Shown: positions 1,832 to 61,156, counted from the first letter of the stretch. The stretch is 64,000 nucleotides of DNA from Candidatus Krumholzibacteriia bacterium (GCA_041484665.1 JBGPIA010000012.1:32001-96000); one strand, 5' to 3'. Notes: generated from the sequence alone by a model not told the origin. A program made the numbers and translations.

Positions 1832-1920
1832 CGCCGTCTCCTGGGCGAAACCGAGGATTCACGGGAGGGCCGCGTCCGCGACGGCCACCGAGGCTCGCGG
1901 AGCGGGTTCTCGGTTCGGCG

Positions 1921-7907: not shown

Positions 7908-7927
7908 GGCGGGCCAGCCCTTTCCCG

Positions 7928-7957
7928 TTGACCGGCGCTGACCGTATCCCGTAGCTT
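7928..7957 (+). promoter_or_regulatory. Putative sigma70 promoter for the APC permease pair
   Basis: TTGACC-18 nt-TAGCTT. Confidence 0.5.
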
Positions 7958-8034
7958 TTCCAGCACTTAGCATCTGCGTGCTCGCCCGTGCCGCGCCCTG
8001 GCACGCAGCCCGTTCCCAGCAGAGGCAGCCCATC

Positions 8035-11084: not shown

Positions 11085-11116
11085 GACGCGTGCCCCGCCT
11101 GCCACGGCCCGGCCGG

Positions 11117-14341: not shown

Positions 14342-14348
14342 GGACGCC

Positions 14349-15290: not shown

Positions 15291-16180
15291 CACCGCTGCC
15301 CCTTCTGCAAGCGCATCTGTACCAGCGTGCCGATCAGCGTGATCAAGAGCAGCAGGAACGCTAGAGCCGAGGCCACCCCCATCCGCCACCAGCGGAAGCC
15401 CTCCTCGTACATGAGCAGCACGAGTGACGTGGTGCTGCGCAACGGGCCTCCTTGCGTCATCACATAGGGCTCCGAGAACAGCTGGAAGAAACCGATCATC
15501 GTGGTGACGCCCACGAACAGGAACGTCGGGGCGAGGCCGGGCAGGGTGACGTGGACGAAGCGCCGCCAGGCGCTGGCGCCGTCGATGGCGGCCGCCTCGT
15601 AGAGCTCCTCGGGGATACTCTGCAGGCCGGCGACGAAGATCAGCATGTTGTAGCCGAAGTTTTTCCACACCGCGAGCAGGATGATCGCCGGCATCGCCCA
15701 ATGCGGATTCCCCAGCCAGTCGATCGGGTGGATCCCCAGCCGGCCCAGCATGTGATCCAGCAGCCCGTAGCGCGGGTGGTACAGGTACCGCCATACGATG
15801 GCGACCGCGACCAGCGTGGTTACGACCGGGGCGAAGTAGATCGTGCGGAACAGTCCGCGCCAGCGCACCAACTTCGCGCTCAGCAGCAGGGCGGCGACCA
15901 GCGACACGATCACCGAGAGCGGCCCCCCCGCCACCACGAAATACAACGTGTTGCGCAGCGCGCGCCAGAATTCCGGGTTGGACAGCGCCTGGGTGTAGTT
16001 GCGCAGCCCCACGAAGCGCGCTGCCTCGGGCGTGCCGATGGCGTACAGGTCGAAGTCGGTCAAGCTCAGCAGCAGGCCGGCCACCACCGGCACGACGAAG
16101 AAGACTGCGATCAGCGCGAGCGCGGGCGCGACGAACAGCCACGCGGTGCGGGCTTGCTGGCGCTCCAACGTCGCGCTCAC
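15290..16180 (-). CDS. Carbohydrate ABC transporter permease (MalF-like)
   Basis: FVGLRNY, ELYEAAAIDGAS; GTG start overlaps the binding-protein stop. Confidence 0.93.
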   Translation of the reverse strand: MSATLERQQARTAWLFVAPALALIAVFFVVPVVAGLLLSLTDFDLYAIGTPEAARFVGLRNYTQALSNPEFWRALRNTLYFVVAGGPLSVIVSLVAALLLSAKLVRWRGLFRTIYFAPVVTTLVAVAIVWRYLYHPRYGLLDHMLGRLGIHPIDWLGNPHWAMPAIILLAVWKNFGYNMLIFVAGLQSIPEELYEAAAIDGASAWRRFVHVTLPGLAPTFLFVGVTTMIGFFQLFSEPYVMTQGGPLRSTTSLVLLMYEEGFRWWRMGVASALAFLLLLITLIGTLVQMRLQKGQR

Positions 16181-19124: not shown

Positions 19125-19414
19125 GGCCGCTCCATTCTTGGGCCAGCGGTCGGCGCGCGCAACCCCATTCGGGCCGGCGCCTGATCGCGGGTTCGTCGCG
19201 GCGCGGGCGCGGTGCGGCCAGCGCGACAAGCGCGCCATCGTCGCGCGGTTGCCCCGCCATTGTCGCGCGGTCGCCCCTGCCTTCACCCCACGCCCCGCCG
19301 TCCCTCCTTTGAGCATCCCGACTTGCGTTCGCACTCCGCCGGAAGGAAGATGATGCGTCGCGCCCGACGGCGGCCGCCGCACGGCCACCGCACCGCGACC
19401 GAAAGGACTGCGGC

Positions 19415-20677
19415 ATGCCTGCTCTGCGTCTGGAAGGCATTGCGAAGACCTTCGCCACAGGCCACGCGGCGATCTCGGGCGTCGACCTCGAGATCTCCGA
19501 GGGAGAGCTGGTGGTGCTGCTCGGTCCGTCCGGCTGCGGCAAGAGCACGCTGCTGCGTATCGTCGCCGGGGTCGAGGTGCCGACCGCGGGCCGCGTTCTC
19601 ATCGACGGCGACGACGTTACCCAGCTGCCGCCCCAGAAACGCGACGTGGCGATGGTCTTCCAGAACTACGCCCTCTATCCTCATATGAGCGTGCGCGACA
19701 ACCTGGCGTTCGGGCTGCGGATGCGGGGCACTCCCCGCGACGTCATCGGGAGGCGCGTGGCGGAGGTCGCCGAGATCCTCGGGATCGCCAACTTCCTGGA
19801 CCGCAAGCCAGCGCAGCTCTCCGGAGGCCAGCGGCAGCGCGTCGCGCTGGGCCGCGCGATCGCGCGGCAGGCGAAGGTCTTCCTGCTCGACGAGCCGCTC
19901 TCGAATCTCGACGCGCAGTTGCGCGCCCACACCCGCACGGAGCTGGCGCGCCTGCACCACTCCCTGCACGTTCCCATGCTGTACGTCACGCACGACCAGG
20001 AGGAGGCGATGACGCTGGGCGACCGCGTCGTCGTGATGCGCTCCGGCCGGTTCCTGCAGATCGGCCCGCCCATGGAGATCTATGGCCGCCCCGCCACGCG
20101 GTTTGTCGGCGAGTTCGTGGGCTCGCCGCGGATGAACCTCCTGCCCGGCCGGCTCACTCCCCTGGGCGGGGGTGGTGTTCAGATCGACGGGCTGGGGGGC
20201 GGGCTGCAGCTCGCGCCCGGAATGGTGGGCGGCGGGCGGGCAGCCGGGGGCGCCCCGGCAGCAGGCAGCGGGCAGGTTCAAGACGTTGGCCGCGCCGGCG
20301 GCAGCGGCGAAGCTGCGGGCGGCGGCCAGCCCGTCATCGTTGGACGTGACGTCGACAACGTGCGGGCTCTGGACGGCGGGCGCGCGCGCGAGCCGCGCGC
20401 TGTCGTCGTGGGCATCCGCCCCGAGGACATCGAGGTCGTCGAGCCGGCCGACGGCGATCTGCTTGCTCGCGCGGACGTGGTGGAGCCGCTGGGCAGGGAA
20501 TCGCTCCTGCATCTGGTGACCGGCGAGCGGGCCGGCGATCCACAAGCCGAGCTACGGGTGCTGGCCGCGGCCCCGACGCCGGTGCGGCCGGGTGCGCGGA
20601 TCGGCCTGCGGCTGCGGCGTGAACGTATCCATCTGTTCGATCCTTCCACCGAGGAGCGGCTCACGGGCTTCGCATGA
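19415..20677 (+). CDS. Sugar ABC transporter ATP-binding protein (MalK-like)
   Basis: GPSGCGKST, LSGGQRQR, LLDEPLSNLD; Gly-rich insertion in the C-terminal domain. Confidence 0.96.
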   Translation: MPALRLEGIAKTFATGHAAISGVDLEISEGELVVLLGPSGCGKSTLLRIVAGVEVPTAGRVLIDGDDVTQLPPQKRDVAMVFQNYALYPHMSVRDNLAFGLRMRGTPRDVIGRRVAEVAEILGIANFLDRKPAQLSGGQRQRVALGRAIARQAKVFLLDEPLSNLDAQLRAHTRTELARLHHSLHVPMLYVTHDQEEAMTLGDRVVVMRSGRFLQIGPPMEIYGRPATRFVGEFVGSPRMNLLPGRLTPLGGGGVQIDGLGGGLQLAPGMVGGGRAAGGAPAAGSGQVQDVGRAGGSGEAAGGGQPVIVGRDVDNVRALDGGRAREPRAVVVGIRPEDIEVVEPADGDLLARADVVEPLGRESLLHLVTGERAGDPQAELRVLAAAPTPVRPGARIGLRLRRERIHLFDPSTEERLTGFA

Positions 20678-40056: not shown

Positions 40057-42270
40057 GTAGAGTGGGCGCCCGGCGCGGTGCCCGGCTCGTCGCCGGGTCC
40101 GTTTCCGAGCGCCCCTCACCGAACCCGGCGTGCGCCTTTCGTTACGCACCGGGCTCTCCATCCGCGATGGCGAAGCGAGGTGGCCGCAGCCACCCGAGCT
40201 TGAAGTAGTGCACCGGCGTCGCCGAGAGCTCGAACGGCTGGACGTTTCCGTCGCACCATTTGAGACTTCGACAGCCAGGCTTGCGCCTGACGTAACGTCG
40301 TTTCAGCTCCTTCATCGTCGTGGTTGGGTGCTTCTTCCTGAGCCATCTGTAGATGGTCCACCACACGTAGTGATCGATTGCGTCGAAGACGTGCTTCGCC
40401 CCCCACGCATGGCGGTAGAAGTTGCACCAACCGCGAAGGATCGGGTTGAGATGTTCGAGACGGTTCTTGAGAGATTCCGTGAGCGTCGAGCGCTGGAAGA
40501 GGTCCTTGATGCGCTCCCGCAGTCGATGACTGCGGTCCTTTGGAATCACCGCCGCGCTGACGAGCCTCCCGTTCGACGGGTGCACGCGCACGCGGACGTG
40601 ATGTCCGAGGAAACGGAGGGGGCGCGTCACAGGCGTGACGAGCGTCTTCGTCTCCGACAACTCCAGGTTTATCTCCTTCAGCGCCGCCGCGATCGCGGCC
40701 TTTTCCTTGTTCGCGACCTCTTCAGCTCGGAGCAACTGCTCTTCGCCGGGAGGGACGCTCACGAGAATGATGAAGTCATCCGCGTACCGAATGGGCATGT
40801 AGATCGCGCGTCCGCATCGCCGGTCGTAATTCCGGGCGAGGAGCGCGCGCTGCGTGATCGCTGCCGGGTCGGAAAGAATCGTCGGCGTGTGGCGAGGCCA
40901 CACGTGACGTTCGTACCGTTCCTCGATCGCGGCGAGCGCGATGTTGGCCAGCAGGGGTGAAAGAATCCCGCCCTGGGGTGCGCCGGCGTCCGTGCGGAAG
41001 AACTGCTCCTCCGCGAGAACCCCGGATTTCAAGAAGGCGAGCACAAGGTCATTGACCTTGGCGTCGCCAATGCGACGGCGAACGCGGACCATCAACACGT
41101 GATGGTCGATGTTGTCGAAGCATCCCTTGATGTCCCCTTCGATCGCCCACTGATACGGGAGCCGACGCTCCCCCCGGACCTCCCGCGGACGCAGAAGCAT
41201 CCGAAGATGCTCCAGCGCGCCGTGGGCGGATTTCCCCGGGCGGAAGCCATACGAGACGGGATAGAAGTCCGCCTCGAAGATCGGCTCCAGAATGTTCTTC
41301 GTCGCCGCTTGCGCGACCCGATCTGCGACAGTGGGGATTCCCAGGGGGCGAAACTTCCCCGGGCTGCCGACCTTCGGGATGAGTACGCGCCTCGCCGGAC
41401 TCGGCCCGTACGCTCGGGATCGCAGCGCACTTCGCAGTCCATCGAGGAACGCCTCTGGCCCTGGGTCGGACAGCAGGTCCCTCACCGTCTTTCCGTCTAC
41501 GCCCGGTGTGCGTCGTCCCTTGTTGCGGGCGACGCGCGCCAGTGCGATCCGCAGGTTTCGGGGATCGGTGACCAACCCCCAAAGCTTGCGGAACACGTAG
41601 TCGGAGCTCTCGTGACTTCGCTCGTACAGCTTCCGTTGCTCGGTCAGGAGCCACGCCTTATCGAGGGTGGATGCCGCATACACGGCTTTCCCCTGCGGCC
41701 CGGACGCCGCACGCGCAGACTGCCCCCCTTCGCCATGTGCACGGCTCTCCCGTGCTCCGACTACTACGGAGGCTCCGCCCCCCGTCCGAGACATCACCGG
41801 ACTTGGCGGCTTGCCGGGCTTCGCGATGCCCGGCGCTCGGATCGGGGTTCCTGTGTTCAAGAGTGGATCCCTTGGTGCTGTAGGCGGTCGGCTGTATCCC
41901 TGGCTGCACGGGCACGCTCCCGATTCGGGGCGGGGGAGCAGCGCGCCCATGACGGGCGTACCCAGTCGCTAGACCCAACGACCAGGCTCTGGCAGCAGTC
42001 CCCGCCGCGAACGACGGGGTTGGCTATTCATACAGAGACGTCCAACACCGACTTCAACATGCTGGACCTTCATCCACGCGGTTTCGCCATGGCACCTGCG
42101 GTAGCCCGCCTCGGACGCACGCGCGTCGTCGCGGACATTTCAGGCCGTTCGGCTCTTGCAGGTCGCCGTTCCAATCTCGGCGACGTTCACGGCCCCCTTC
42201 TCTACCCGGCCCGACCCGGGCAAGGATGACGTTCTCAGGTCATCGGATCCTCCCTTGCTTCACAGCGCAC
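40057..42270 (-). mobile_element. Group II intron (IIB-like), apparently full length, about 2.2 kb
   Basis: 5' end GTGCG at 42270; domain V GAGCCCGGTGCGTAACGAAAGGCGCACGCCGGGTTC; domain VI ending CTCTAC at 40057; loop GGGTCTA (41970-41976) can pair with 5' exon TAGATCC. Confidence 0.9.
40142..41683 (-). CDS. ltrA: Group II intron reverse transcriptase/maturase (no endonuclease domain)
   Basis: NKGRRTPGVDG, RPLGIPTVADR, SYGFRPG, PQGGILSPLLAN, RYADD, LNPILRGWCNFY; GTG start at 41683. Confidence 0.95.
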   Translation of the reverse strand: MYAASTLDKAWLLTEQRKLYERSHESSDYVFRKLWGLVTDPRNLRIALARVARNKGRRTPGVDGKTVRDLLSDPGPEAFLDGLRSALRSRAYGPSPARRVLIPKVGSPGKFRPLGIPTVADRVAQAATKNILEPIFEADFYPVSYGFRPGKSAHGALEHLRMLLRPREVRGERRLPYQWAIEGDIKGCFDNIDHHVLMVRVRRRIGDAKVNDLVLAFLKSGVLAEEQFFRTDAGAPQGGILSPLLANIALAAIEERYERHVWPRHTPTILSDPAAITQRALLARNYDRRCGRAIYMPIRYADDFIILVSVPPGEEQLLRAEEVANKEKAAIAAALKEINLELSETKTLVTPVTRPLRFLGHHVRVRVHPSNGRLVSAAVIPKDRSHRLRERIKDLFQRSTLTESLKNRLEHLNPILRGWCNFYRHAWGAKHVFDAIDHYVWWTIYRWLRKKHPTTTMKELKRRYVRRKPGCRSLKWCDGNVQPFELSATPVHYFKLGWLRPPRFAIADGEPGA

Positions 42271-49362: not shown

Positions 49363-49947
49363 TCAGCGCGCCGGCGTTTCTCCCGATCGCGCTTCTCGCT
49401 TCGCCAGCGCTCGAAGGTAGTCGACGATGTTGCGGATCTTCCGCTCGTTGAGCGTGCGGCCCCACGGTGGCATTGCGGTCGAGAGCCCGACGCTGCCGCC
49501 GCCGGCGCGAATGGCCGCGGCCAGGTCGTCATCGGAGTGGGTGGCCTGGAAAGTGGAGTCGGCCAGCGCGCGCGGACGCGGGTCGAGGTTGTAGGCGTTG
49601 AAGCCGTCCCCCTTGCCCTCCTCACCGTGGCAGTTCATGCAGTAATGGTGAAATAGGGCGCGCCCTTCGCGGGCGTTGTAGCCCAGGTCTGGGATCGGCA
49701 ACGTCGGCACTGCGTAACCCTGGGCTGTGGAGTCGGCGGCCGTTGGAGCAGTGGTGACCGGCGAAGCGGTCGTAGCAGCAGACGCGCTTTGCATTGTCGA
49801 GTCGGCCGGAGCGCCCATTCCCGTGTTGATCGTCGCAAGAACCGCGGCCAACACCAGGGCACCGCCGATCAGCCCGCCCCGGATCGCTGCGCTGCGATTC
49901 CTTGCGCCGATCGCGAGCCCCGCCCAGACCATCCGCACCCGCCTCAC
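49363..49947 (-). CDS. Monoheme cytochrome c
   Basis: CMNCH, distal MPPW, N-terminal hydrophobic segment; GTGA-coupled. Confidence 0.9.
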   Translation of the reverse strand: MRRVRMVWAGLAIGARNRSAAIRGGLIGGALVLAAVLATINTGMGAPADSTMQSASAATTASPVTTAPTAADSTAQGYAVPTLPIPDLGYNAREGRALFHHYCMNCHGEEGKGDGFNAYNLDPRPRALADSTFQATHSDDDLAAAIRAGGGSVGLSTAMPPWGRTLNERKIRNIVDYLRALAKREARSGETPAR

Positions 49948-52142
49948 GGCTTGCGCCCCTTTCCCCGCTTCGTGCCCGTGGCCGCCTTCCCGGAGTTTCC
50001 GGCGCTCCCCGCGCTTCCCGCATCCCGCCCTAATCCCGAGCCCTCCGGCGGCGGGATCGACGCCACGTAGGCGGTCAGATCGCGGGCATCGGTATCATCC
50101 AGGCCGTAGTCGGGCTCGCGCACGTCGGCGCGCCACCGCTGCGGGCCCTTGAGCCACCAGTAGATCCACCCCGTCTTCAGGCGGGCCGCGGCTCCGTCGA
50201 GCAGGGGTCCATAGTAGCCACCCCTGCCCCCCACCATGTGGCAGGCCTGGCATCCATATCTCTCATAGAAGAGCTTGCGGCCGCGCTCGATCTGCTCGTA
50301 CGCCGCCCCGGCGGGAAAGATCTCCTCTGGAATCCGGTCGTCTCGCAGGACGTTCTCGACGAAGTTGGCCATGAAGGCCGCTTGGTCGTCGGGAATCTGC
50401 AGCGGGATCATCCTCTCCTCGAGGATCGGGCGCAGGGTGGTGGGCAGCTTCAGGTAGCTCGCGAGCCAGGCCTCCTTGACCTTGCTTCCCTCGGCGCCCA
50501 GGGGCGCCGTCGAGATGTCACCGCCGGCGCCGTTGATCTGATGGCATGACAGACACCGATACTCGCCAGCCAGCTGCCCGAAATGTCCGGGAGGCGTGTA
50601 GTCGTGCTGCGGCGCCTCCATGACATAGGCAGCGGGCAGGGGATCGCGGCCCAACGACAGCAGCGCCGTCACCAGCGCCTCGACCTGGTGTTCGGTGAGA
50701 TTGAACTGCGGCATCCGCAGGCCTTGGCGGAACGAGCGTGGGTCGGAGACCTTGGCGGCCAGCCAGTCGGGCAGCCGGCGCGGCAGATCCTCGCGCATTC
50801 CGAAATCCAGCTGCGCAGCCGGCTTGTCGGCGATGCCGGTGAGCTCGGGGCCGATCGGCACCGCGATCCCCTCGCCGTTGATGCGGTGGCAGCTGCCGCA
50901 GCCGAGTCTCTTGTAGATCTCCTTGCCTGCCTCGATCGCTTTCTCCGCCGGCCGCACGCCGGGCGAGGGGGTCGCAACCGACGGCTCCGGAATCGACGGA
51001 TCGGTGAGCTCTTCCATCATATAGGCGCTGAGATCGGCAAGATCATGGGGGCTGAAGTGGTAGCGCGGCATGCGGATCCCTGGGTAGAACCGCTGGGGGT
51101 CGCCCAGGAACGCCACCAGCCAGCGACGGTTGACCTCGGAGGCGATTCCGGACAGCTCGGGCGCACTGCCGTTGCCTCGGCCCTCGACCGTATGGCAGGA
51201 GATGCAACGCGAGGCCGAAAACAAGACCTTCCCATGGTCAACGTCCCCGCCCTGGCTCGCGGTCCGCGACTGGTCAGCGTCTTCGCCCTGGCTGGCGACT
51301 TGCGCATGCTCGGCGTGCGCGCCGTGATCGACCTCTCTGCTCGCGGTCCCGCCCGCTGTTTCTGCGCCCAGCTCCACGATCGGCGGTCGCGTCCACAGGA
51401 ACGCCGTGAGCGAGTCGATCTCGCCGTCGCTCAGCGCGAAGTTGGGCATCCAGGTTGCCGGTCGCAGCGAGCGTGGCGCATGCAGCCACGCCTTGAGCCA
51501 GGCCGGGTTGGTCTTCTGCGCCAAACCGGCCAGATCCGGCGCCTCGGTCTTCCATCCTTCCTGCCCGGCCACCTTGTGACATCCGTAGCAACCCACGCGC
51601 GTCATCAGAGCCCGGCCCTCCGACAGCAGCGAAGCTTCCGGCACCTCATCACCCCGGTGACACCGTCCGCAGGCCGCCTCGGTGTAGCGCAGCGGCAGCA
51701 GCGGCGAGCTCCAGTCGGGGACGCTTCCGTGCGCCTCGGCAACGGTCGTGGCACGCCCCTGCCCCTGGTGGCAGATCACGCAGCCGAAGCGTGGAATGTC
51801 GCCGGGCGTGTGCGGGGTGCGTGGGTGCTGGCGGAATGGCTCGGTTACCTTCGCCATCCGCGGATCCTCGAGCCCCAAATGACACGTGACGCAGCGGTCC
51901 ACACGGCCGTCGAAACCCGGAAGCCAGATCTGGTGGATCCCGATGTGCTGGGCCCGCGCCTGCTTCAGCTCCTTGAGCGATCCCGCGCTGCGCGTAAGCA
52001 GGCTGCGATACTGCGTCTGGTAGCGACGATAGCCGCGGAAGTAGTCCTTCACTGGCGAGATCGCCAGCACGATCAGGAAGGCGACGCTCGATACGGCGAA
52101 CCAGAACCACAAGCGGTCGGAGGATGGCTCTTTCGGACTCAT
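49944..52142 (-). CDS. Membrane-anchored octaheme cytochrome c
   Basis: Eight CxxCH: CVTCH, CVICH, CGRCH, CYGCH, CISCH, CGSCH, CLSCH, CQACH; N-terminal TM. Confidence 0.92.
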   Translation of the reverse strand: MSPKEPSSDRLWFWFAVSSVAFLIVLAISPVKDYFRGYRRYQTQYRSLLTRSAGSLKELKQARAQHIGIHQIWLPGFDGRVDRCVTCHLGLEDPRMAKVTEPFRQHPRTPHTPGDIPRFGCVICHQGQGRATTVAEAHGSVPDWSSPLLPLRYTEAACGRCHRGDEVPEASLLSEGRALMTRVGCYGCHKVAGQEGWKTEAPDLAGLAQKTNPAWLKAWLHAPRSLRPATWMPNFALSDGEIDSLTAFLWTRPPIVELGAETAGGTASREVDHGAHAEHAQVASQGEDADQSRTASQGGDVDHGKVLFSASRCISCHTVEGRGNGSAPELSGIASEVNRRWLVAFLGDPQRFYPGIRMPRYHFSPHDLADLSAYMMEELTDPSIPEPSVATPSPGVRPAEKAIEAGKEIYKRLGCGSCHRINGEGIAVPIGPELTGIADKPAAQLDFGMREDLPRRLPDWLAAKVSDPRSFRQGLRMPQFNLTEHQVEALVTALLSLGRDPLPAAYVMEAPQHDYTPPGHFGQLAGEYRCLSCHQINGAGGDISTAPLGAEGSKVKEAWLASYLKLPTTLRPILEERMIPLQIPDDQAAFMANFVENVLRDDRIPEEIFPAGAAYEQIERGRKLFYERYGCQACHMVGGRGGYYGPLLDGAAARLKTGWIYWWLKGPQRWRADVREPDYGLDDTDARDLTAYVASIPPPEGSGLGRDAGSAGSAGNSGKAATGTKRGKGRKP

Positions 52143-52840
52143 CAGTGTGCACCAGGATGCCAGGGCCAGACCCATTTCCAACCGGGGCCGCGGAACAGCA
52201 CCCCGATCAGGGTGAGGACGACGGTGACCGACACGAACCAGGTCATGATCCAGTTGGAGAGCGGCACCTTCGCAAGGCGCCCGCGCCAGTCCGGTGGGCA
52301 GGCCGGTATGGCCGGTAGAGCCATCGCCAGGGTCACCAGTAGCGTGGGCACCAGCACCGCCCACACTCGGAAACCCACCAGGAGCGCCGCGAGCGCCGCG
52401 CTCACGACCAAGAGCGTCGCGAGCTTCTTGCGCCGCGGCTCCGCGAGGAAGCCGGCGTTGTCCAGGTTCACCCTGAAGTAGGGGATCGCGACCATCGCAA
52501 TGACAACCAGCCCCGGGATGAGGACGCCGGCGACGATCGGCGGAAAATAGTGGAGCAACTCCTGCAGGCCCAGGAAGTACCAGGGGGCCTTGGTCGGGTT
52601 GGGCGTATTGGAGGGGTCGGCGATTCCCTCCAGCGGGGCGTCGAAGAACAGCGAGATGAGCGACAGGACGACGACGCACACCTGGATGAGAATGATCTCG
52701 CGCAGCAACAGGTGCGGCGCCGTCATCACCAGTTCTTCTTGATCGACGAGCACCCGCGCCGGGGTATCCCGCCGGATCAGCGCCACCCGCTTGGGCGTAG
52801 CTTTGGCATCGCTGTCGCGCCCGACCTCGAACTCGGTCAC
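52142..52840 (-). CDS. Cytochrome b6/f-type subunit IV
   Basis: [38 protein letters not shown]. Confidence 0.88.
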
Positions 52841-53583
52841 GGCTGGCCTCCTCGGCTGCGACCCGATCCCGCAGAGCCCGCCAGTCCTCCGTCCTTGCGC
52901 ACTCGCCACAGGTGCAGCGCCACGCCCAGCACCAGTCCCACGGGCAGCAACGCGCAGTGGAGCACGTAGAACCTCAGCAGCGCGTTCTCACCGACGATGG
53001 TTCCACCCAGCAGCAGGTACCGCATCGGACCTCCCAGCACCGGCACGGCCCGTACCATATTCGTCCCCACCGAGACACCCCAGAGCGCCAACTGATCCCA
53101 AGGCAACAGATAGCCGGTGTAGCTCAGCAGAAGCGTCATCAGCAGCAGGACCACACCCACGACCCAGTTGAACTCGCGCGGGGGGCGGTAAGCCTTGTGG
53201 TAGAAGACCCGCAGCATGTGGAGGAACACCACCAGGACCATCATGTGCGCGGCCCAGCGGTGCAGATTGCGCAGGAACAGCCCGTTGCCCACCACGAACT
53301 GCAGCTCCTTCATGTCGTGGTAGGCCTGTGGTACCGAGGGGTGGTAGTAGAGCATGAGCATGAGGCCGGTGGCGGTCAGGAGCGCGAAAAGGATGAGGCT
53401 GATCGCTCCGAGAAAGTAGGTGCTGGAGGCCTCGAGGCTGCGCCGGCGCACCTTGGCCGAGTGGAGATGGAGGATCACGCTCTCCATAACCAGCATGACG
53501 CGGTTGCGATTGGTGGGCCGCACGCCGTGCCGCACGATCGAGCGCCAGACCCGATTGTCCGTGGCTGTCTGCAAGAAGCTCAT
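52837..53583 (-). CDS. Cytochrome b6-like (split cytochrome b N-terminal part)
   Basis: LHRWAAH...[22 protein letters not shown]...ALHLW. Confidence 0.93.
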
Positions 53584-53622
53584 GCTCGCGCCTCGATTGC
53601 GGTTGGTGGGCCGCACGTTGCG

Positions 53623-54102
53623 TCAGAACCGGTAGACCGTCCCGGCCGGCACCTCGATCGATGTGTCCACGATCAGCTCGCCTTTGTCCGAGAGGCTCAT
53701 CTGCACCCAGCGCAGCGGCCGCGGCGCTGGCCCTGCCATGACGTCACCCTCCAGCGAGAAGCGGCTGCCGTGGCAGGGGCATGCGATGAGGTTCTTGTCG
53801 GGCTGGAAGCGGGCGATGCAGCCCAGATGGGTGCACACCGACGAGAGAGCCCGGAAGCCGTCGGCCAACCGGATGACGAACACCCGGTGCGCGGCGTCCT
53901 CGAGCACCGCGCCGACACCAATGGCCTCGGGCTGGCCGGCCGAGAATGACGTGGCCGGCTCGAACAGCACCCGGGGACGAAGGAAATCGGCCATCACCGC
54001 GCTGGCTCCGCCGCCGGCGAGCCCGCAGGCGATCAGGCCGGTTGCCTGACAGAAGAGCCGGCGGGTCAGGACCGGCTTTCCCGCGTCGCCGGTCTCAGAC
54101 AT
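53623..54102 (-). CDS. Rieske 2Fe-2S protein
   Basis: TRRLF Tat-like motif, CTHLGC, CPCHGSRF. Confidence 0.95.
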   Translation of the reverse strand: MSETGDAGKPVLTRRLFCQATGLIACGLAGGGASAVMADFLRPRVLFEPATSFSAGQPEAIGVGAVLEDAAHRVFVIRLADGFRALSSVCTHLGCIARFQPDKNLIACPCHGSRFSLEGDVMAGPAPRPLRWVQMSLSDKGELIVDTSIEVPAGTVYRF

Positions 54103-56095
54103 GGCTCGCCTCCAATGCGCTCGGCTGCGGTCGGCCGTGGTCCAGTCCGCTCGGCTGCGGTCGGCCTTGTTCCAGTCGGCTCGGCTCCAATGGGCTCGAC
54201 TCCAATTGGCTCGGCTCCAATTGGCTCGGTTCCGTGAGGAAGAACTGCTCCATGGTGATGGTGCCGGCGGGGCAGCGCAGTGCGCACAGTCCGCATCGGA
54301 TGCAGATCGTCTCGTCCTTGATCAGCGCGGTTCCGCTGGGAACGTCCTGCTCGACGAGCGCGGCGGCAGCTGCGCCACATTCGGCCACCAGGTCGTCACG
54401 CAGCGCTCCATCGGCTGAGAGCGCCGACAGCGGCACGAACTCGATGCATTTCTCAGGACAGACGTCGGCGCAGCCGCCGCACAGGATGCACTCGGTGCCT
54501 CGCTGCGGGTCCTCGTGGAACACCGTGTTCACCCAGCAATGCAGGCAGCGCGACGCCTCGAGCTTGGCCGATGTCTCGGACAGACACTGCTCGATCTCGG
54601 CGATGCCGATACGGCGCTCGATGGGCAGCGCCGGCAGCTTCTGCCGCGGCACCCCCTCGTAATCCAGCGTCCGGCGGTAACCCGGGAGCGGCTGGATCAC
54701 GATCTCCACCGTCTCCAGAGCGGCCTGCGCACCGCGCAGGTGGGCGTGGATGGAGGACGCCGCGCGGCGGCCGTCCGCGATGGCGTTGATGGCGATGCGC
54801 GGGCCGAACGCCACATCCCCGCCGGCGTAGACTCCCGGCGCGGTGGTGGCCAGCGTGTCGGCATCGATGCGGATCGTCCCGCGGGGGGTGGTCTCGACGC
54901 CATCCTCGGGCCGCAGGAACGACAGGTCGCAGGCCTGGCCGATGGCCAGGATGACCGTATCGGCCGCCAGCGCCAGCTCGCTGCCCGGCACGAACGTCGG
55001 ATTGAAGCGGTGCTGTGCGTCGAAGACCGCGGAGCAGTCGATAGTCTCCAGCCCCGTCACGCGGCCGTTCTCGCCGAGGATGCGCTGGGGTCCCTTGCCG
55101 GCATGGATCACGATCCCTTCGTGCTGCGCCTCGAGGATCTCGCTGCGGTCGGCCGGCATCTCATCGAAGCCCTCCAGGCAGACGATGTGGACCTCCTTGG
55201 CGCCGAAACGGATGGCCGACCGCGCCACATCCAGGGCGGTCACGATGTTGAGACTGGGATTCACCACGTCGTCACGCACCGCAGTGCGCAGCGCCGTGCG
55301 CGCCACGTCGAGCGCCACGTTTCCGCCACCGACCACGAGCACCCGCTTGCCGAGCTCCAGGCGGTAGCCCATGTTCATATTGAGCAGGAAGTCGACGCCC
55401 TTCAGCACACCGTCCAGATCGGTGCCCGGGATCTGAAGATCGCGGCTCTTGTGCGCACCCGTGGCCACGAACACGGCCCGGTATCCCTGGCTGCGCAGGT
55501 CGGCCAGCAGGAAATCGCGACCCAGCCTCGCTCCCAGCTTCAGCTCCACGCCCAGGCTGAGAATGGCGTTGATCTCCAGCTTGATCAGCTCGCGCGGGAG
55601 TCGGTACTCCGGGATGCCCAAGCGCAGCATGCCGCCCGCGACCGGCTGGGCCTCGAAGATCGTGACCGGGTAACCGAGCAACGCCAGATCGTGCGCCGCC
55701 GCCAGGCCCGCGGGCCCGGCGCCCACGATCGCCACACGGTCCTGGGGATGGCGCACCGGCCTGTCGCCGTAGATCTCCCGCAGCGCGTCGAGGTCGATCA
55801 TGCTCTCGACGCCAAAGCGCTCGGTGATGAAGCGCTTCAACGCCCGGATGGCGATCGGCTGGTCGAGCGCGCCCCGCCGGCAGGCGGGCTCGCATGGCGC
55901 GGCGCAGATCCGTCCGCAAATCGACGCGAGCGGATTCGGCCGGCGGGCCACCGCGTAGGCCTCGCGGAAGCGCCCCTCGGCGATGAGCGCTACGTAGCGT
56001 CCGGCTTCGGTGCCGACCGGGCAGGCCTTGAAGCAAGGGAAATTGCTCTCCAGCCACACCCGGTCCACCAGGGTCGTCTCGGCCACGGTCGCCAA
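54095..56095 (-). CDS. NAD(P)-dependent Fe-S flavoprotein (GltD/NfnB/DsrL-like) with C-terminal ferredoxin domain
   Basis: CFKACP, CGRICAAPCEPAC, GAGPAG, GGGNVALD, EASRCLHC, CILCGGCADVCP, CIRCGLCALRCP. Confidence 0.92.
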   Translation of the reverse strand: MATVAETTLVDRVWLESNFPCFKACPVGTEAGRYVALIAEGRFREAYAVARRPNPLASICGRICAAPCEPACRRGALDQPIAIRALKRFITERFGVESMIDLDALREIYGDRPVRHPQDRVAIVGAGPAGLAAAHDLALLGYPVTIFEAQPVAGGMLRLGIPEYRLPRELIKLEINAILSLGVELKLGARLGRDFLLADLRSQGYRAVFVATGAHKSRDLQIPGTDLDGVLKGVDFLLNMNMGYRLELGKRVLVVGGGNVALDVARTALRTAVRDDVVNPSLNIVTALDVARSAIRFGAKEVHIVCLEGFDEMPADRSEILEAQHEGIVIHAGKGPQRILGENGRVTGLETIDCSAVFDAQHRFNPTFVPGSELALAADTVILAIGQACDLSFLRPEDGVETTPRGTIRIDADTLATTAPGVYAGGDVAFGPRIAINAIADGRRAASSIHAHLRGAQAALETVEIVIQPLPGYRRTLDYEGVPRQKLPALPIERRIGIAEIEQCLSETSAKLEASRCLHCWVNTVFHEDPQRGTECILCGGCADVCPEKCIEFVPLSALSADGALRDDLVAECGAAAAALVEQDVPSGTALIKDETICIRCGLCALRCPAGTITMEQFFLTEPSQLEPSQLESSPLEPSRLEQGRPQPSGLDHGRPQPSALEASHV
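54111..54232 (-). repeat. Degenerate 15-bp tandem repeats encoding EPSQL-type pentapeptides
   Basis: EPSQL EPSQL ESSPL EPSRL EQGRP QPSGL DHGRP QPSAL. Confidence 0.85.
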
Positions 56096-56200
56096 CCTGC
56101 TTCCGGTTCCTGCTTCGTGCGCCTACGACTTGTGCCCGTTTCGCGCGCCTGCTTCGTGGTGCTGAGTCGTGTTCTTGCCTCTCGCGACCGCGTCTGCTTC

Positions 56201-56800
56201 CTACTTCTTGAGCTCGAGATCGGCGGTGGTCGACCCGGCAACCGTCACAGCTTTGCTCGCCTCCGTCTTGAACTTGGGATGCCACACCTTCACGGTGTAC
56301 GCGCCGTCGGGCAGATCCTTGATCACGTACGCACCCGTCTTGTCGGTCACGGCAAACCACGGAGTCGGCAAGGCCAGGACGAAGCCTTCCATCTCCGGAT
56401 GCACCTTGCACAGGAGGGTGGCCGCGCAGCGCGCCTTGAACGTGTAGCCACGAGTCTGCCCCTTGGGCCAACTGCCGAGATTGAACGTCTCGCAACACTT
56501 GTCCGGCGAGAAGACGTTGTGGAGTACGGCGTCGCTGTTGAGGAAGTCCACCGTCGTCCCCACCAACACCGGCAGGACGTGGGGGACGAACACCAGGTTC
56601 TTTTGATCGATCTGGGCGTGGGCCGTCGGCGGCGGGAAGGTTTTCCCAGCGATCGCGTCGACGTAGACGACCGCATCGGCATTCGTCTTGACTCCGGGCA
56701 CCTTGACGACGCCCTTCAGCTCGCCCGCCGGCGCCACGGCTGGGACGATCAGCACGACCGAGAGCAATGTGACAGCGCAGAAGAGCTTCACGAGCTTCAT
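56201..56800 (-). CDS. Periplasmic cupredoxin-like protein with carboxypeptidase-regulatory-like beta-sandwich
   Basis: Signal peptide; FLNSDAVLHNVFS and CKVHPEM give a His/Cys/His/Met type-1 Cu ligand set. Confidence 0.8.
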   Translation of the reverse strand: MKLVKLFCAVTLLSVVLIVPAVAPAGELKGVVKVPGVKTNADAVVYVDAIAGKTFPPPTAHAQIDQKNLVFVPHVLPVLVGTTVDFLNSDAVLHNVFSPDKCCETFNLGSWPKGQTRGYTFKARCAATLLCKVHPEMEGFVLALPTPWFAVTDKTGAYVIKDLPDGAYTVKVWHPKFKTEASKAVTVAGSTTADLELKK

Positions 56801-56905
56801 ACGTTCGACCTTTCTTGCTTGCTCGAGCCGGCGCGCGCGGGTGTTGTCGGGGCCTTCTGCAGGGCCCGCTCCAGCACCCTCTTGCGGGCCTGCTCGAGGC
56901 CCTTC

Positions 56906-58297
56906 TCAAAATCCAATGACCACGCCGCCCGAGACTTCCTCGTACTGGAACTTGCCGCCCGTTGCCTTGAGCCAGTCGGTGGCGATGAAGGACTTGATGT
57001 TGGCGCGGACCAGGCAATCAATCGTCAGCGAGACGCGGTCGACCTTCTCGTCCCCGAACTTGAAGGACTCCCAGCGACCGGCGGGGATCAGCCACGGGTA
57101 GGCCACCCAGGCGACCTCGGCAAACTGGCTGTTGGTGGAGATGTCGGTGGGCTCGGTGTCATCCAGGAAGGGGCGGTCGTCCTTGCGCGCGATCAATCCG
57201 GCATGGGCCAGCAGGTCGAGGTAGTTGACCGCCACGTCGCCGCCCACAACGTGGAATGGATCCTCGGGGCCGGGATCTCCATTGGGCAGCGCGCCGATGC
57301 GCCCGGGGTTGTGGATCGGCCCGCCAACCTTAGGCAGCACAGCGTCTGGAAGCGGGATCGATCCCTTGCCCGTGTACGCGAACGCCGACACAGCGACCGA
57401 CTTCTCACTCCACGGCTTGGGATTCGCCGGCAGACCTTCCGCTGCGCCACTGCGGGGGACGCCGTCGGACTCCAGACCGCCGACCTTGTAGGAAGCCCGG
57501 GCGTAGACGTCCTTCGACTTGTCGCCGACGCTGCCCGCTCCTTCCACGACGCCGGCGTTGTACGAAAGCCGGTGCGCCACGACGCCATAGGCCTCGATCC
57601 CCTGCTGGAATGGCTCGGCGGACCAGGTGTTGTCACCCACCGGCTCGGTGAGCGCGAAGTACTCCTGGTCCATCAGCGACCGGTGCGTGCTCACCAGCAT
57701 CAGGCCTGGCTCGAACGAGCCGACCTTGAACTGCAGCTCGGGAGTATCGAGCGGGCGCACCAGCAGATTGAGGCGCTCCATTTCCGTGGCAATGCTGCCG
57801 CCATCGCGGGCAAAGACCACCGAGCCCCAGAAGGAGAAATGTTCGCCGAGCGTGCCAGCGCCCAGAATCTCGAATTCTCCACCCATTCCGCCGAAGGAGA
57901 ACGTCTCCCCTGCGCGGTCGTACGCCATCGTGCTTGTGATGAGCACGGCGACCGGGGGAAGCCCGGAGATCTCTCCCGGCCAGACGGACTTGGGCCAGAG
58001 CTTCTTGTAGCCCTCGGCGCCCAGCGACACTGGTTGATCCTTGGAGATGCTCGCATCCGTACCGGCCGGGAATCGGTAACCGTTCGCGCGGAACGCTTCG
58101 CCGAACGGAGTGAGGCCCGGAAACGCCACGTGGCACGTCTGGCAGCTCGTCTGGTACTTCCGGGCGAACGCCGGAATGGCTCCAGCCTCATTCGGCCAGA
58201 TCGCCACGCAGGCCAGGACGACGAGCACCAGCGCGCCCGCCGAGCGGAGCTGACTCCACGCATCTCGCCACATTCTATTGGTTCTGTCGCGCCGCAT
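56906..58297 (-). CDS. Cyc2-like fused monoheme cytochrome-porin
   Basis: Signal peptide, then IPAFARKYQTSCQTCHVAFPGLTPFGEAFRANGY; amphipathic beta-strands; terminal Phe. Confidence 0.8.
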   Translation of the reverse strand: MRRDRTNRMWRDAWSQLRSAGALVLVVLACVAIWPNEAGAIPAFARKYQTSCQTCHVAFPGLTPFGEAFRANGYRFPAGTDASISKDQPVSLGAEGYKKLWPKSVWPGEISGLPPVAVLITSTMAYDRAGETFSFGGMGGEFEILGAGTLGEHFSFWGSVVFARDGGSIATEMERLNLLVRPLDTPELQFKVGSFEPGLMLVSTHRSLMDQEYFALTEPVGDNTWSAEPFQQGIEAYGVVAHRLSYNAGVVEGAGSVGDKSKDVYARASYKVGGLESDGVPRSGAAEGLPANPKPWSEKSVAVSAFAYTGKGSIPLPDAVLPKVGGPIHNPGRIGALPNGDPGPEDPFHVVGGDVAVNYLDLLAHAGLIARKDDRPFLDDTEPTDISTNSQFAEVAWVAYPWLIPAGRWESFKFGDEKVDRVSLTIDCLVRANIKSFIATDWLKATGGKFQYEEVSGGVVIGF

Positions 58298-58386
58298 GAC
58301 ACCTCCCGATGGTTCCGAGGAAATGCCGAACGGGCCCAGAGTGCGCGAGCGCGCCCCGCTCTACAATCCACGGAACGGATCATTTT

Positions 58387-58406
58387 CCTGATTCAATTGC
58401 ATCAGG
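58387..58406. promoter_or_regulatory. 20-bp palindrome CCTGATTCAATTGCATCAGG (lux-box-like)
   Basis: 18 of 20 positions are self-complementary; about 90 nt upstream of the porin start, downstream of the LuxR gene. Confidence 0.65.
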
Positions 58407-58566
58407 GGCTGCGCAGGCCATCGGGCTGACGTCGCGGGATTCCCGGCGGGAATCGCGGGGGTTCAGGCAGGAAATGCGGAGGCTCAGGCAGGAAATGCAG
58501 ATGCGCAGGTGGGAGCTGCGGGGGCTGCGGGGGCTCTGACTGGAAGTGCGAGAGCTCGGACGGCGA

Positions 58567-59217
58567 TCAGAGCAGATGCTGGCGCAAGGCCAGCGAGACG
58601 GCCTCCAGCTTGCTGTGGACGTCGAGTTTGCGCAGGATGTTCTGGATGTGATTGCGCGTGGTGGTCACGCTGATGAAGAGCGAGTCGGCAATCTCGCGGG
58701 TGCTGGTGCCGTCGGCGAGCATGCGCAGGACCTGCACCTCGCGCACCGTGAGCGGCACCGGCGGCCCCGGCGCGGGATCTCCCTGGCCCTGCCGATCCAC
58801 GACCGGCGCGGGCGAATCGGCCAAGATCCGGCGGATGAGCTCGGTGACATCCCGCCGGCGATCGACCGGCTGCAGAAAGTGGATCACGGAGTACTGCGAC
58901 GCTCGCGGACCCGGAACCACGACGATGGAGAAGCTGGCCGCCATCGTCTCGCCCGATTCCTTGCGAACCTCCAGCTCGAAGTGCCGCACCGTCTCATGAC
59001 GGCGGACCATGTTGATGAGAGCGCACTGCTGGTCGCAGTAGCGATTGCCGAACACGTCAACCCCGCACAGGATATCGTGGCATGGTTTGCCTAGGACGCC
59101 GGCCGCGGAGTAGCCCAGCAGCTCTTCGGCGCTCCTGTTCCAGATGACGACGCGCCCCTGCTCGTCGCTGGCGAATGCGGCGGCGCCGGTGCGGGCGATC
59201 AGGTCGAGGGGATCCAC
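58567..59217 (-). CDS. PAS domain-LuxR HTH transcriptional regulator
   Basis: WNRSAEELLGYS PAS; LTVREVQVLRMLADG...IADSLFISVTTTRNHI. Confidence 0.93.
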   Translation of the reverse strand: MDPLDLIARTGAAAFASDEQGRVVIWNRSAEELLGYSAAGVLGKPCHDILCGVDVFGNRYCDQQCALINMVRRHETVRHFELEVRKESGETMAASFSIVVVPGPRASQYSVIHFLQPVDRRRDVTELIRRILADSPAPVVDRQGQGDPAPGPPVPLTVREVQVLRMLADGTSTREIADSLFISVTTTRNHIQNILRKLDVHSKLEAVSLALRQHLL

Positions 59218-59443: not shown

Positions 59444-61156
59444 CTACCTGGTGGCGGCCAGAATCGTATCGCCAATCGCCGCGATCCCCCTCCAGACCAG
59501 GTGCCCACCGTGCAGTCTCACGACATGCGCCAGTCCGGGCGGGAGGTCGGGGCAGAGCGTGTCCTTCTCCGAGGCGCCGTAGATGCACAGCAGCTTGCGT
59601 CCGCGCAGCTTCTCCACCTCGGGTAGAACGGGCAGCGCGGTGGGGCGCGGGTGGGTGCCCAGCCACTCGGAGATGTGGAACTCGAAGTCCGCCATGTGCG
59701 CGGGGCCAAGCAGGACGATCGAGCGCACGCGGTCGAGCAGGTCGGGTGGAAGCCGGTTGGCCATGAACGCCAGCACATCCGCCCCCAGCGAATAGCCGAT
59801 GAGGATGGCGTGGTCCTTGTTCCAGGCCGTCATGTAGCTGCGCAGGATGCGCTCGAGGTCCTTGGACGCCTCGTCGGGTGTGCGGCGCTTCCAGAAGTAG
59901 TGCAGCGAGCTGAGTCCCACCACGGGGATGCCCTGCCGCACGAAGGCCTTGCTGAGCCCGCGCTCGGTGATGCTCCAGCCTCCGTCGCCGGTGACGATCA
60001 CTGCCAGCTCGTCACTCGCGGCGTGGCCAGCACCAGCGAGTCCCCGCGTGCCTGCTGTGTCCGCCGCGCCTGTCGCGCCTGCGGCGGCCGCCGCGTTCCC
60101 CGCGCCCCCGTCTGCGGTCTCCGGCTCGACCTCCGTCAACGGCAAGTCGCTCAGGTCGTTCGCGCTCGGCGACGGCTGCCCGCCTGCCTGTTGCTCGCCG
60201 GACGGCTGCTGGCCTGAAGGCTGCTCACCCGACCGCTGCTCACCTGACCGCTGCTCAACAGACTGCTCGCCGCTGCTTTGTTGCCCGCCCGACTGCCCGC
60301 CCGACCGCTCCCCGCCCTCGTGCTGGGACGGCGGTTGCCGCACGCCCAGCTGCTCCGCCCCCGGCTCCTGCGCGCCTGACCGGCCGTGGGCCAGCCGATC
60401 GAACGCCTGCTTGAACTGTGGCTCCCAGTTGCGTGGCACGGAGAACCCGTGGCCGACCTTGGGCAACGACACGACCTCGCCGTGGGGAACCTGCGACACA
60501 TACGCCCCGACGGCGGCTGGATCGCACACCTGATCGATCGTGCCCTGCAGCGCGATCCAGGGAACCTCGAGCGACTTGGCTGGCAGGAAGCTGACCCCTT
60601 TGCCCTGCGGTCCGGGGCCCCACTCCAAGCCGCTCCCCTTGCACATCGGCTTGGTCAACGGCAGATCCGGGCAGAAGCCCATGCTGATCGCCCCGCCGAA
60701 GGTATTCGACGGTGCCTGCACGAGTGCCGCGTAGACGAGCGTCGCCCCCGACGAGTACCCCACCAGGATCGGCGTGATGTAGTCGGGGAACCCCATCTCC
60801 TTCTGCGCGAACTTGCTGAGCAGCTCGAAGTCCGACGCCGGATACGAGCATGGCTCGTCGCTTGACTCCAACGCATGCAGGTAGTGGGTGATGTTGACGC
60901 CGACGACGAGCGCGTCCAGGCCGGCCAGCGTGCGTGCCATGTCGACCACGCCGAGGTTCCAGCCGCCGTCACCCGAGACGAACAAGACGACGGCGCTGGG
61001 CTGGGGGACCTGCGAGTAGAGCGTCACCGTCCCGAAGCGCCCGAACTCCAGCGTCTTCTCCGTTGCGCGGGCACGCGACGGGCCGCACAGCGCGATCGGC
61101 GCAGTCAGCAGCAACGCACCCAGCAGCCCCCACCAGCGCCTACGCGTCGGTTCCAC
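59444..61156 (-). CDS. AcvB/VirJ-family hydrolase (tandem alpha/beta domains)
   Basis: SGDGGW / TGDGGW, GYSSGA, GYSLGADV, GGH; SGEQ repeat linker. Confidence 0.88.
   Translation of the reverse strand: MEPTRRRWWGLLGALLLTAPIALCGPSRARATEKTLEFGRFGTVTLYSQVPQPSAVVLFVSGDGGWNLGVVDMARTLAGLDALVVGVNITHYLHALESSDEPCSYPASDFELLSKFAQKEMGFPDYITPILVGYSSGATLVYAALVQAPSNTFGGAISMGFCPDLPLTKPMCKGSGLEWGPGPQGKGVSFLPAKSLEVPWIALQGTIDQVCDPAAVGAYVSQVPHGEVVSLPKVGHGFSVPRNWEPQFKQAFDRLAHGRSGAQEPGAEQLGVRQPPSQHEGGERSGGQSGGQQSSGEQSVEQRSGEQRSGEQPSGQQPSGEQQAGGQPSPSANDLSDLPLTEVEPETADGGAGNAAAAAGATGAADTAGTRGLAGAGHAASDELAVIVTGDGGWSITERGLSKAFVRQGIPVVGLSSLHYFWKRRTPDEASKDLERILRSYMTAWNKDHAILIGYSLGADVLAFMANRLPPDLLDRVRSIVLLGPAHMADFEFHISEWLGTHPRPTALPVLPEVEKLRGRKLLCIYGASEKDTLCPDLPPGLAHVVRLHGGHLVWRGIAAIGDTILAATR

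Follow-up and report, generated by a model that had tools for sequence, protein, structure and literature searches.

A stretch of 64,000 nucleotides (nt) from a Candidatus Krumholzibacteriia bacterium (GCA_041484665.1 JBGPIA010000012.1:32001-96000), analyzed as a whole and called the window here, contains at positions 49363-59217 an operon in which genes for a predicted outer-membrane cytochrome-porin of the Cyc2 family and a type-1 copper protein stand in one string with genes for a Rieske/cytochrome b complex, two c-type cytochromes and an iron-sulfur flavoprotein. The question raised by this locus is in which direction electrons pass along such a chain, and between which partners. An earlier note on this DNA had proposed a candidate conduit from the outer membrane to NAD(P), citing Acidithiobacillus as the known case; the chemistry of the quinol-oxidation (Qo) site does not suit a straight conduit, and the comparative evidence leans toward outward flow, the reverse of iron oxidation in Acidithiobacillus. 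Our preferred reading, to which we assign a probability of roughly 0.4, is that the complex would oxidize menaquinol and send one electron to NAD+ and one out via Cyc2 to a dissolved high-potential oxidant. Papers are cited by PMC accession.

The Operon

Nine open reading frames (ORFs), all on the minus strand and in the order first described, occupy the locus. From upstream to downstream they are:

58567-59217, minus strand: PAS-LuxR regulator, 216 amino acids (aa); Pfam PAS_9 and GerE
56906-58297, minus strand: Cyc2-family cytochrome-porin (predicted), 463 aa; Cyc2 motif, one CxxCH, PxL, barrel model
56201-56800, minus strand: exported type-1 copper protein (cupredoxin) with a CarboxypepD_reg-like second domain, 199 aa; Pfam
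54095-56095, minus strand: cytoplasmic Fe-S flavoprotein, 666 aa; Pfam/NCBIfam, DsrL/NfnB-like layout
53623-54102, minus strand: Rieske [2Fe-2S] protein with a twin-arginine leader, 159 aa; best match in the Protein Data Bank (PDB) 9rk4
52837-53583, minus strand: cytochrome b6-like subunit with four heme-b His, 248 aa; identity to anammox-type cytochrome b
52142-52840, minus strand: subunit IV with five hydrophobic segments and the Qo motif APWY, 232 aa; Pfam Cytochrom_B_C
49944-52142, minus strand: membrane-anchored octaheme cytochrome c, 732 aa; eight CxxCH, c7-like N-terminal hemes followed by class I domains
49363-49947, minus strand: exported or anchored monoheme class I cytochrome c, 194 aa; Pfam Cytochrome_CBB3 and Cytochrom_C

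Gap measurements agree with the earlier claim that several of these genes are coupled by overlap. The overlaps are 8 nt (flavoprotein/Rieske), 4 nt (cytochrome b/subunit IV), 1 nt (subunit IV/octaheme) and 4 nt (octaheme/monoheme), and the gaps are 269 nt (regulator-porin), 105 nt (porin-cupredoxin), 105 nt (cupredoxin-flavoprotein) and 39 nt (Rieske-cytochrome b); the starts of cytochrome b (53583), subunit IV (52840) and the octaheme protein (52142) were revised from longer mechanical ORFs. With all nine genes confirmed, the locus does supply electron carriers for each compartment from cell surface to cytoplasm. No terminal oxidase gene was found among the nine by Pfam and NCBIfam searches. 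Tandem 15-nt units at 54103-54233 extend the C-terminus of the flavoprotein, and tandem 21-nt units lie at 58445-58509 between the regulator and porin genes. A promoter scan gave zero sigma-70-like sites and a single terminator-like site, which is on the other strand and scores lower than expected from shuffled sequence.

An Inner-Membrane Complex of the Kuenenia Kind

The Rieske, cytochrome b6 and subunit IV genes named in the earlier note were borne out by Pfam, by PDB matches and by identity to anammox-type proteins. The best PDB match of the Rieske protein, 9rk4, is Kuste4569 of Kuenenia (E 1e-30; runner-up 4e-17). As references we used two loci from an anammox-type genome, one with the gene set of Kustd1480-85 (L101) and one with that of Kuste4569-74 (L102); the residue numbers H43, R247 and R511 in the latter agree with the published Kuenenia ones (PMC12954380). 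Cytochrome b of the operon is 53.5% and 51.9% identical to its counterparts in these two loci, the flavoprotein 39% and 35% identical to the two anammox-type ones, and the octaheme protein 27.7% identical to the L101 octaheme over 694 aa. Among porin-linked cytochromes b, H39 (H43 of Kuste4571) is present in 48/48 and R229 (R247) in 45/48, with three gaps. APWY occurs in 39 of the 40 subunits IV, and the five segments predicted by hydropathy have their equal in the five helices of the Kuenenia models. At the potential-tuning positions of the Rieske protein Ser is found in 50/50 rows, and the Ser/Phe pair in 34 of the 36 flavoprotein operons. In a tree of cytochrome b, in which a number of forks are open, the porin-linked sequences were not recovered as a single clade, and one of them (L066) falls near the anammox rows. 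Some Bacteroidota copies (L015, L019, L020, L035, L058, L060) have a conserved 120-aa ORF beside the Rieske gene, which matched no checked family.

Judged from sequence, the inner-membrane block and flavoprotein are a kind of complex already described from Kuenenia. With Kuste4569-4574 and Kustd1480-1485 (PMC12954380) they share the Rieske protein, a four-helix cytochrome b, a five-helix subunit IV with APWY, the flavoprotein, a multiheme cytochrome c in place of cytochrome f/c1, the interface His and Arg, and homology along the full length of the octaheme protein. In contrast to Kuenenia, the locus lacks the Cys for heme cN, the Arg511 contact and a HAO-like octaheme protein, has an acidic motif in place of YRR, and adds the monoheme cytochrome, the cupredoxin and Cyc2. 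The cN-binding Cys (WCMGG) was found in 0/48 porin-linked cytochromes b vs 4/4 anammox-type ones.

The flavoprotein comprises an N-terminal Fe-S domain, FAD and nucleotide-binding domains, and a C-terminal 2x[4Fe-4S] domain; its PDB matches are of the Bfu/Nfn family and a hydrophobic segment is absent. In DsrL, the YRR motif goes with use of NADP and its absence with use of NAD (PMC7596348). The YRR position is taken by Glu (E308 here) in 38/38 porin-linked flavoproteins, and YRR is present in 4/4 anammox-type rows. Because this motif is replaced, and given the DsrL rule, the nucleotide is likely to be NAD(H) rather than NADP(H); the earlier call of an NAD(P) flavoprotein stands as to the Fe-S flavoprotein, with its NADP option made less likely. 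We rejected an NADP-type enzyme since YRR is absent, and likewise a glutamate synthase small subunit, there being no adjoining large-subunit gene and an extra ferredoxin domain.

Proposed Electron Path through the Complex

At a Qo site the Rieske and heme-b branches meet at a two-electron quinone, such that both electrons leave a quinol or both enter a quinone. Because this makes the electron path Y-shaped, a direct wire through the complex from outside to NAD(P)H is unlikely, and we rejected the straight conduit as a poor fit to Qo-site chemistry. Under our preferred reading, menaquinol would bind at the APWY Qo site. The high-potential electron would pass from the Rieske protein to the octaheme cytochrome, the monoheme cytochrome, the type-1 copper and the Cyc2 heme, and be taken up at the pore by a soluble acceptor, for which Fe(III) or Mn(III) bound to organic chelators are candidates. 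The low-potential electron would travel via heme bP, heme bN, a predicted heme at the dimer interface (H39) and the [4Fe-4S] chain to FAD and NAD+; without heme cN, this branch would skip the quinone-reducing site. The resulting NADH could be re-oxidized by complex I of the host.

Partners of Related Complexes

An alignment of cytochrome b was searched against 208 genomes from the phylum and 251 from the class to which another genome (G003) belongs, and 40 loci were hand-picked from the 93 places listed (13 + 80), across score bands and with long contigs favored. The flavoprotein lies within the operon in 24 of the 40. The partners of these 24 are clade II NosZ in 14, a cbb3 CcoN-like protein in four, Cyc2 with cupredoxin in three, an NXR-like enzyme in two and an unknown protein in one; of the NosZ calls, seven were over the TIGR04246 cut-off and seven were made by BLAST to one of those. 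The three Cyc2-cupredoxin loci have the three top-scoring cytochromes b among the loci fetched. Where the flavoprotein is lacking (16/40), homologues of the octaheme protein and cupredoxin lead directly into an aa3-type CoxA in six. The Cys for heme cN was found in only 2/40, and neither this Cys nor the interface His marks the presence of the flavoprotein.

In the 14 NosZ loci (L126, L131-L136, L144-L149, L115) flavoprotein, Rieske, cytochrome b/IV and pentaheme genes were observed immediately upstream of clade II nosZ and nosD; in L145 the genes are fragmented. The NosZ-linked flavoprotein complex is a candidate NAD-linked quinol:N2O module, and no description of it was found in one narrow literature search. 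The core stands ahead of cbb3 oxidase genes in L123, L139, L140 and L143, and ahead of an anammox-NXR-like molybdoenzyme in L113 and L114.

The source genome (G000) has four cytochrome b genes. One paralogue (L099, G000:C7:134400-146000) lies in an operon with a flavoprotein, a Rieske protein, a fused b/IV subunit and a hexaheme protein, which ends in the alpha, beta, gamma and chaperone genes of a periplasmic enzyme of the type II DMSO-reductase family; as in the Cyc2-linked operon, its core has no cN and has the acidic motif. The molybdoenzyme scored 892 bits against 5e7o/4ydd, which we take to be perchlorate reductase, followed by NarG (529), EbdA (383) and NXR (211). A third APWY complex (L098, G000:C4:130300-138300) has a polyferredoxin, a HEAT-repeat protein, an octaheme protein and a cupredoxin, and keeps the heme cN Cys. 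The fourth Rieske/cytochrome b is in a multiheme island (L096 and L097, G000:C2:704600-738300) with a 42-heme cytochrome (1063 aa), several proteins of 6-12 hemes and Hmc/Hyb-like membrane subunits.

The Porin and Its Periplasmic Carriers

The motif unique to Cyc2 is AXPXFAR[Q/K][T/Y] immediately before a single CxxCH, with PxL downstream (Keffer 2021, PMC8406198). The porin matches this motif exactly from residue 40, with a single CxxCH and PxL downstream; hydropathy gives one hydrophobic stretch (17-35) ahead of an A-x-A site, and the C-terminal residue is Phe. Its homologues number 1372 of 8000 scored candidates, and the profile matches 4225 cluster representatives. Cyt572 genes were retrieved through their published N-terminal motif for comparison. 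A 50-row porin profile matched Cyt572 within the heme motif only (22-24 bits), and a 145-row profile of the wider family matched it at 45-49 bits from residue 2 to about 170-220; the heme-less part of the latter still scored 14-19 bits, with 126 shuffled or reversed controls at 6.1 bits or below. Motif, single heme, a predicted 16-strand barrel and homology to Cyt572 reaching into the barrel support the assignment to the Cyc2 family made in the earlier note, and that assignment stands. The Cyt572-like motif, taken with PMC9769843, suggests a place in cluster 3, the cluster whose function has been called the most uncertain (PMC8406198). The porin had no match in Pfam or NCBIfam at E<=0.01, and the ESM Atlas gave unnamed clusters and a further one in which 12% of the members carry Porin_O_P.

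The predicted barrel with a heme plug came out in part. An AlphaFold model of the porin (pLDDT 78, pTM 0.77) has 16 long strands, and Foldseek matched it to 16-strand porins, OprP (TMq 0.53) being highest among the listed hits and OprO reaching 0.50; OprO is the structure superimposed on Cyc2 in a recent review (PMC13741234). The heme domain was modeled at a pLDDT of about 45-60, too low to place the plug. Two further candidates for this type are encoded in the source genome, a second Cyc2-like porin amid heavy-metal efflux and P-type ATPase genes (G000:C1:692076-693383) and a third, more divergent one-heme protein with a similar N-terminal motif (G000:C1:767035-768114).

The copper protein and both cytochromes c are as first described, with type-1 Cu ligands in place and CxxCH counts of eight and one. 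The ligands are H94/C131/H134/M137, all four being present in 66 of 72 rows; the Pfam match to Copper-bind is below cut-off and that to CarboxypepD_reg above. PDB matches of the cupredoxin are weak and of amicyanin/plastocyanin type. Rusticyanin, the analogy drawn earlier, was rejected, since the 21 PDB matches with E<=1 include none and the protein has the extra CarboxypepD_reg domain. All eight CxxCH are retained in 42 of 43 octaheme homologues. The monoheme protein, with one CxxCH and one hydrophobic segment, closes the conserved gene string.

Conservation of the Arrangement

Synteny was surveyed in the best 80 of 485 porin loci (two locus pairs share genomes), of which 46 extend at least 8 kb downstream of the porin and are informative. 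A strict form of the Cyc2 motif was found in 35 of the 80 and a loose form in all 80, and in 71 of them a cupredoxin gene goes with that of the porin. Among the informative loci Rieske and cytochrome b genes are present in 38, which agrees with the linkage of the porin and cupredoxin to the bc genes expected earlier; all seven downstream genes are present in 27, and the bc block is absent from eight. Full operons were observed in a number of phyla of uncultured bacteria, the records bearing the names Eisenbacteria, Acidobacteriota, Ignavibacteriota/Bacteroidota and Calditrichaceae. With 27/46 loci carrying all seven downstream genes, the arrangement is far beyond chance. Porin divergence correlates with that of cytochrome b (rho 0.74, 47 rows) and of the flavoprotein (rho 0.83, 38 rows), kinship not being removed from either value. 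A porin profile had no match in 5/5 anammox-type genomes.

One locus (L003:11944-20410) has a 65%-identical porin with cupredoxin, octaheme and monoheme genes, and its core is a pentaheme/molybdopterin-family/Fe-S/NrfD set, the molybdopterin-family protein of which has ArrA as best PDB match. On these gene assignments a link to the quinone pool persists when the core is replaced, and it is therefore that link which is conserved.

Direction of Electron Flow

Outward flow is favored by the partner survey, the C7 paralogue, the lack of an oxidase gene and the Ser/Phe Rieske protein. It is also favored by a model for anaerobic, Fe(III)-reducing A. ferrooxidans, in which electrons are proposed to pass outward from quinol through bc1, cytochrome c and rusticyanin to Cyc2 (PMC8790237). 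The menaquinone genes and complex I of the host, together with the absence of RuBisCO and CdhC matches, are further points in favor. The Kuenenia Rieske protein with the same Ser/Phe pair (Kustd1480) has a potential of +335 mV, and bifurcation to NAD(P)+ is the mode proposed for the Kuenenia complexes (PMC12954380). Given potentials of -70 mV for menaquinone and -320 mV for NAD(P) (PMC12954380), N2O, O2 and the oxyanions of the sister operons meet what is required of an acceptor.

Several points weigh against this reading. For bifurcation to NAD+ the potential of the acceptor has to exceed about +180 mV, a limit that the membrane potential raises further, and Fe(III) of the ferrihydrite type, at 0 +/- 100 mV (PMC8406198), is too low. 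The oxidant on the Cyc2 branch would therefore have to be chelated Fe(III), Mn(III) or something similar, not ferrihydrite. The potentials of chelated Fe(III) and Mn(III) are high enough. The mechanism proposed for the Kuenenia complexes is itself unproven (PMC12954380), complexes of the APWY clade have been proposed to run in reverse (PMC4122944), and all three characterized Cyc2 proteins oxidize Fe(II) (PMC8406198, PMC7029218). The residue at the Arg511 contact of Kuste4570 is Gly here, and the interface His is found in 40/40 picked loci, flavoprotein or not, and is not diagnostic of a link to NAD. The flavoprotein is missing from 11 of the 38 bc-bearing loci, mostly of Myxococcota, and cN is missing there as well. 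In the partner survey, the 40 loci are mostly of one class and non-independent, sister operons have the reductase downstream and Cyc2 is upstream, and the NXR-like enzyme that ends two of them is reversible.

Known Cyc2 activities, the reverse-mode proposal and the NXR-like partners favor inward flow, which would take the form of confurcation: an Fe(II) electron entering by Cyc2 would pass via copper and cytochrome c to the Rieske protein, be joined at Qo by an NADH electron delivered through the flavoprotein, and reduce menaquinone, giving a mixotrophic iron oxidation that requires an organic co-substrate. We consider this unlikely, although it is a serious contender. Apart from the family function of Cyc2 (PMC8406198) and the APWY proposal (PMC4122944), an NAD(H)-type motif suits an NADH donor in a heterotroph, the loss of cN fits equally well, and cluster III Cyc2 homologues of heterotrophs have been read as iron oxidizers (PMC9769843). 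However, in 18 of the 21 flavoprotein operons without Cyc2 the terminal module is NosZ or a cbb3-type oxidase, enzymes able only to accept electrons, and the host has two heme-copper oxidases, to which Fe(II) electrons passed directly for O2 reduction would probably yield more.

The partner survey serves just as well for outward flow with input from NADH, in which the flavoprotein would pass electrons from NADH to the b hemes and, at the cytoplasmic face, to quinone, and the oxidation of quinol at Qo would feed Cyc2. An acidic motif suggestive of NADH, plentiful in heterotrophs, is in keeping with this, as are the Myxococcota copies without the flavoprotein, which would be expected of an optional input. 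Nevertheless, we find it rather improbable, since on the quinone-reducing side there is no cN Cys (0/48) and an Arg occupies the place of the His of bc1 complexes. Such an input would also be wasteful beside complex I (Hauser et al., PMC12954380), which the host possesses.

A more classical Fe(II) oxidation, in which Cyc2 and the cupredoxin would feed aa3-type oxidases in trans with the Rieske/b block as a co-regulated side branch, appears quite improbable. The cupredoxin is indeed commoner beside the porin (71/80) than is the bc block, which 8/46 loci lack, and the genome has two heme-copper oxidases and an ACIII-like cluster; against this stand the tight gene order, the divergence of the porin in step with cytochrome b and the flavoprotein (with kinship still included), and the L003 locus, in which a swapped core still connects to the quinone pool. 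That the porin is no energy conduit and works instead in the uptake, sensing or detoxification of metals or oxyanions, drawing on the bc block for redox power as has been suggested for Geobacter ExtI, is very improbable, for although a Geobacter cluster of an OprP-like porin with Rieske/cytochrome b is implicated in selenite and tellurite reduction (PMC5877670), near-matches to ExtP, ExtQ and ExtS exist and cluster 3 is functionally the most uncertain (PMC8406198), the Ext scores are all below their cut-offs (253.6/290, 57/150, 82.6/100), the heme motif is invariant in 80/80 loci by the loose pattern, and the copper carrier is dedicated.

Relation to Known Systems

The Cyc2 of A. ferrooxidans, Cyt572 of Leptospirillum and Cyc2PV-1 of Mariprofundus share with the porin a leader, the motif, a single heme, PxL and a 16-strand OprP-like barrel. 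The porin differs in its distance from Cyt572, in having Rieske/b-flavoprotein neighbors instead of an oxidase, and in a host that looks heterotrophic. The A. ferrooxidans rus/pet system likewise has Cyc2, a blue-copper carrier, cytochrome c and a bc complex whose Qo motif has Pro as its second residue, but there bc1 is encoded apart and an aa3 oxidase goes with cyc2, whereas here the complex is b6-type with its own flavoprotein and there is no rusticyanin. The Geobacter extHIJKLMNOPQS genes (PMC5877670) also cluster an outer-membrane porin with multiheme cytochromes c, a Rieske protein, cytochrome b and a subunit IV-like protein; in contrast, ExtI is presented as a porin and not a cytochrome, and no cupredoxin or flavoprotein is listed in the accessible part of that paper. 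Orthology to Ext was rejected on the matches to ExtP, ExtQ and ExtS, all below cut-off. With flavoproteins of the DsrL/NfnB type (PMC7596348) the one here shares N- and C-terminal ferredoxin domains; unlike DsrL it has no dsr context and has a membrane Rieske/b partner, and the acidic motif is outside the assays in the accessible part of that paper.

Cyc2 homologues of Eisenbacteria, Krumholzibacteriota and similar heterotrophs have been reported (PMC9769843; PMC7914226), their gene context not being described in the accessible text, and the cytochrome b clade has been noted to have large oxidoreductase subunits beside it (PMC5600118). No link between Cyc2 and such a complex is described in the accessible parts of PMC10654088, PMC7029218, PMC5317091 and a Tenderiales preprint. 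The combination had been put forward in the earlier note as one without a known description: its inner-membrane block and flavoprotein are known from Kuenenia, and Cyc2 joined to a Kuenenia-type complex was not found in literature searches of openly accessible main text. What is added here are the differences in NAD(H) and cN, the partner survey and the argument on direction.

More broadly, though only tentatively and with considerable doubt, we hypothesize that NAD-reducing, quinol-bifurcating Rieske/cytochrome b complexes form a widespread family into which different terminal modules can be plugged. These would include N2O reductase, cbb3 oxidase and Mo-oxyanion reductases, with Cyc2 and cupredoxin as the extracellular module for dissolved high-potential metals and Cyc2 as a one-heme route of metal respiration. 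If this is true, many cyc2-bearing "iron oxidizers" among heterotrophs of soil, peat and groundwater would be metal reducers. As cyc2 serves as a marker of iron oxidation and the role of divergent homologues in heterotrophs is debated, an operon that supplies a defined partner chain, and yields two opposite predictions on the direction of Cyc2, is of value. That an anammox-type complex stands ahead of N2O reductase and oxidase genes in numerous other bacteria offers more routes to examine bifurcation, and the partner survey bears on energy conservation in N2O-reducing bacteria.

Regulator, Host and Neighboring Genes

The PAS domain of the regulator has C46, C61 and C65 invariant in a 13-row alignment, and the protein is likely a redox or metal sensor. 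Its homologues occur in 12 of the 80 porin loci, upstream of the porin in nine and after the operon in three. Many operon copies were judged by eye to have two-component-like genes upstream in place of PAS-LuxR.

The source genome is 5.45 Mb long, with 69.5% GC and 93.65% completeness, and the window is G000:C12:32001-96000 within it. Family searches identified the futalosine menaquinone pathway and, on C21, complex I; the two heme-copper oxidases are on C1 and C8, and there are the ACIII-like cluster and many multiheme cytochromes. The host is likely heterotrophic because RuBisCO and CdhC had no match in this 93.65% complete genome; the search for ATP-citrate lyase was blank here and equally so in every control genome, and carries no weight. 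This accords with the polysaccharide-using heterotroph of the earlier note, as do the GH94, GH1, glucoamylase-like and sugar-binding genes of the window. Close relatives of the porin are scarce in the phylum: 4/208 genomes match at E<=1e-20, one other closely, and 0/9 in its own family. The nearest cytochrome b, at 86% identity, is in an Eisenbacteria record. The patchy distribution of the operon suggests horizontal transfer.

Zero Rfam matches were obtained in the window. A group II intron-type reverse transcriptase/maturase (RVT_1 + GIIM) is encoded at 40142-41950 on the minus strand, with no Rfam intron match in the window. The glucan-use cluster, at 779-20677, comprises genes for LacI, GH94, GH1, a glucoamylase-like enzyme and an ABC transporter. 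Upstream of the operon, tandem 15-nt units at 60170-60257 fall in the linker between the two domains of a VirJ-family protein (59444-61156).

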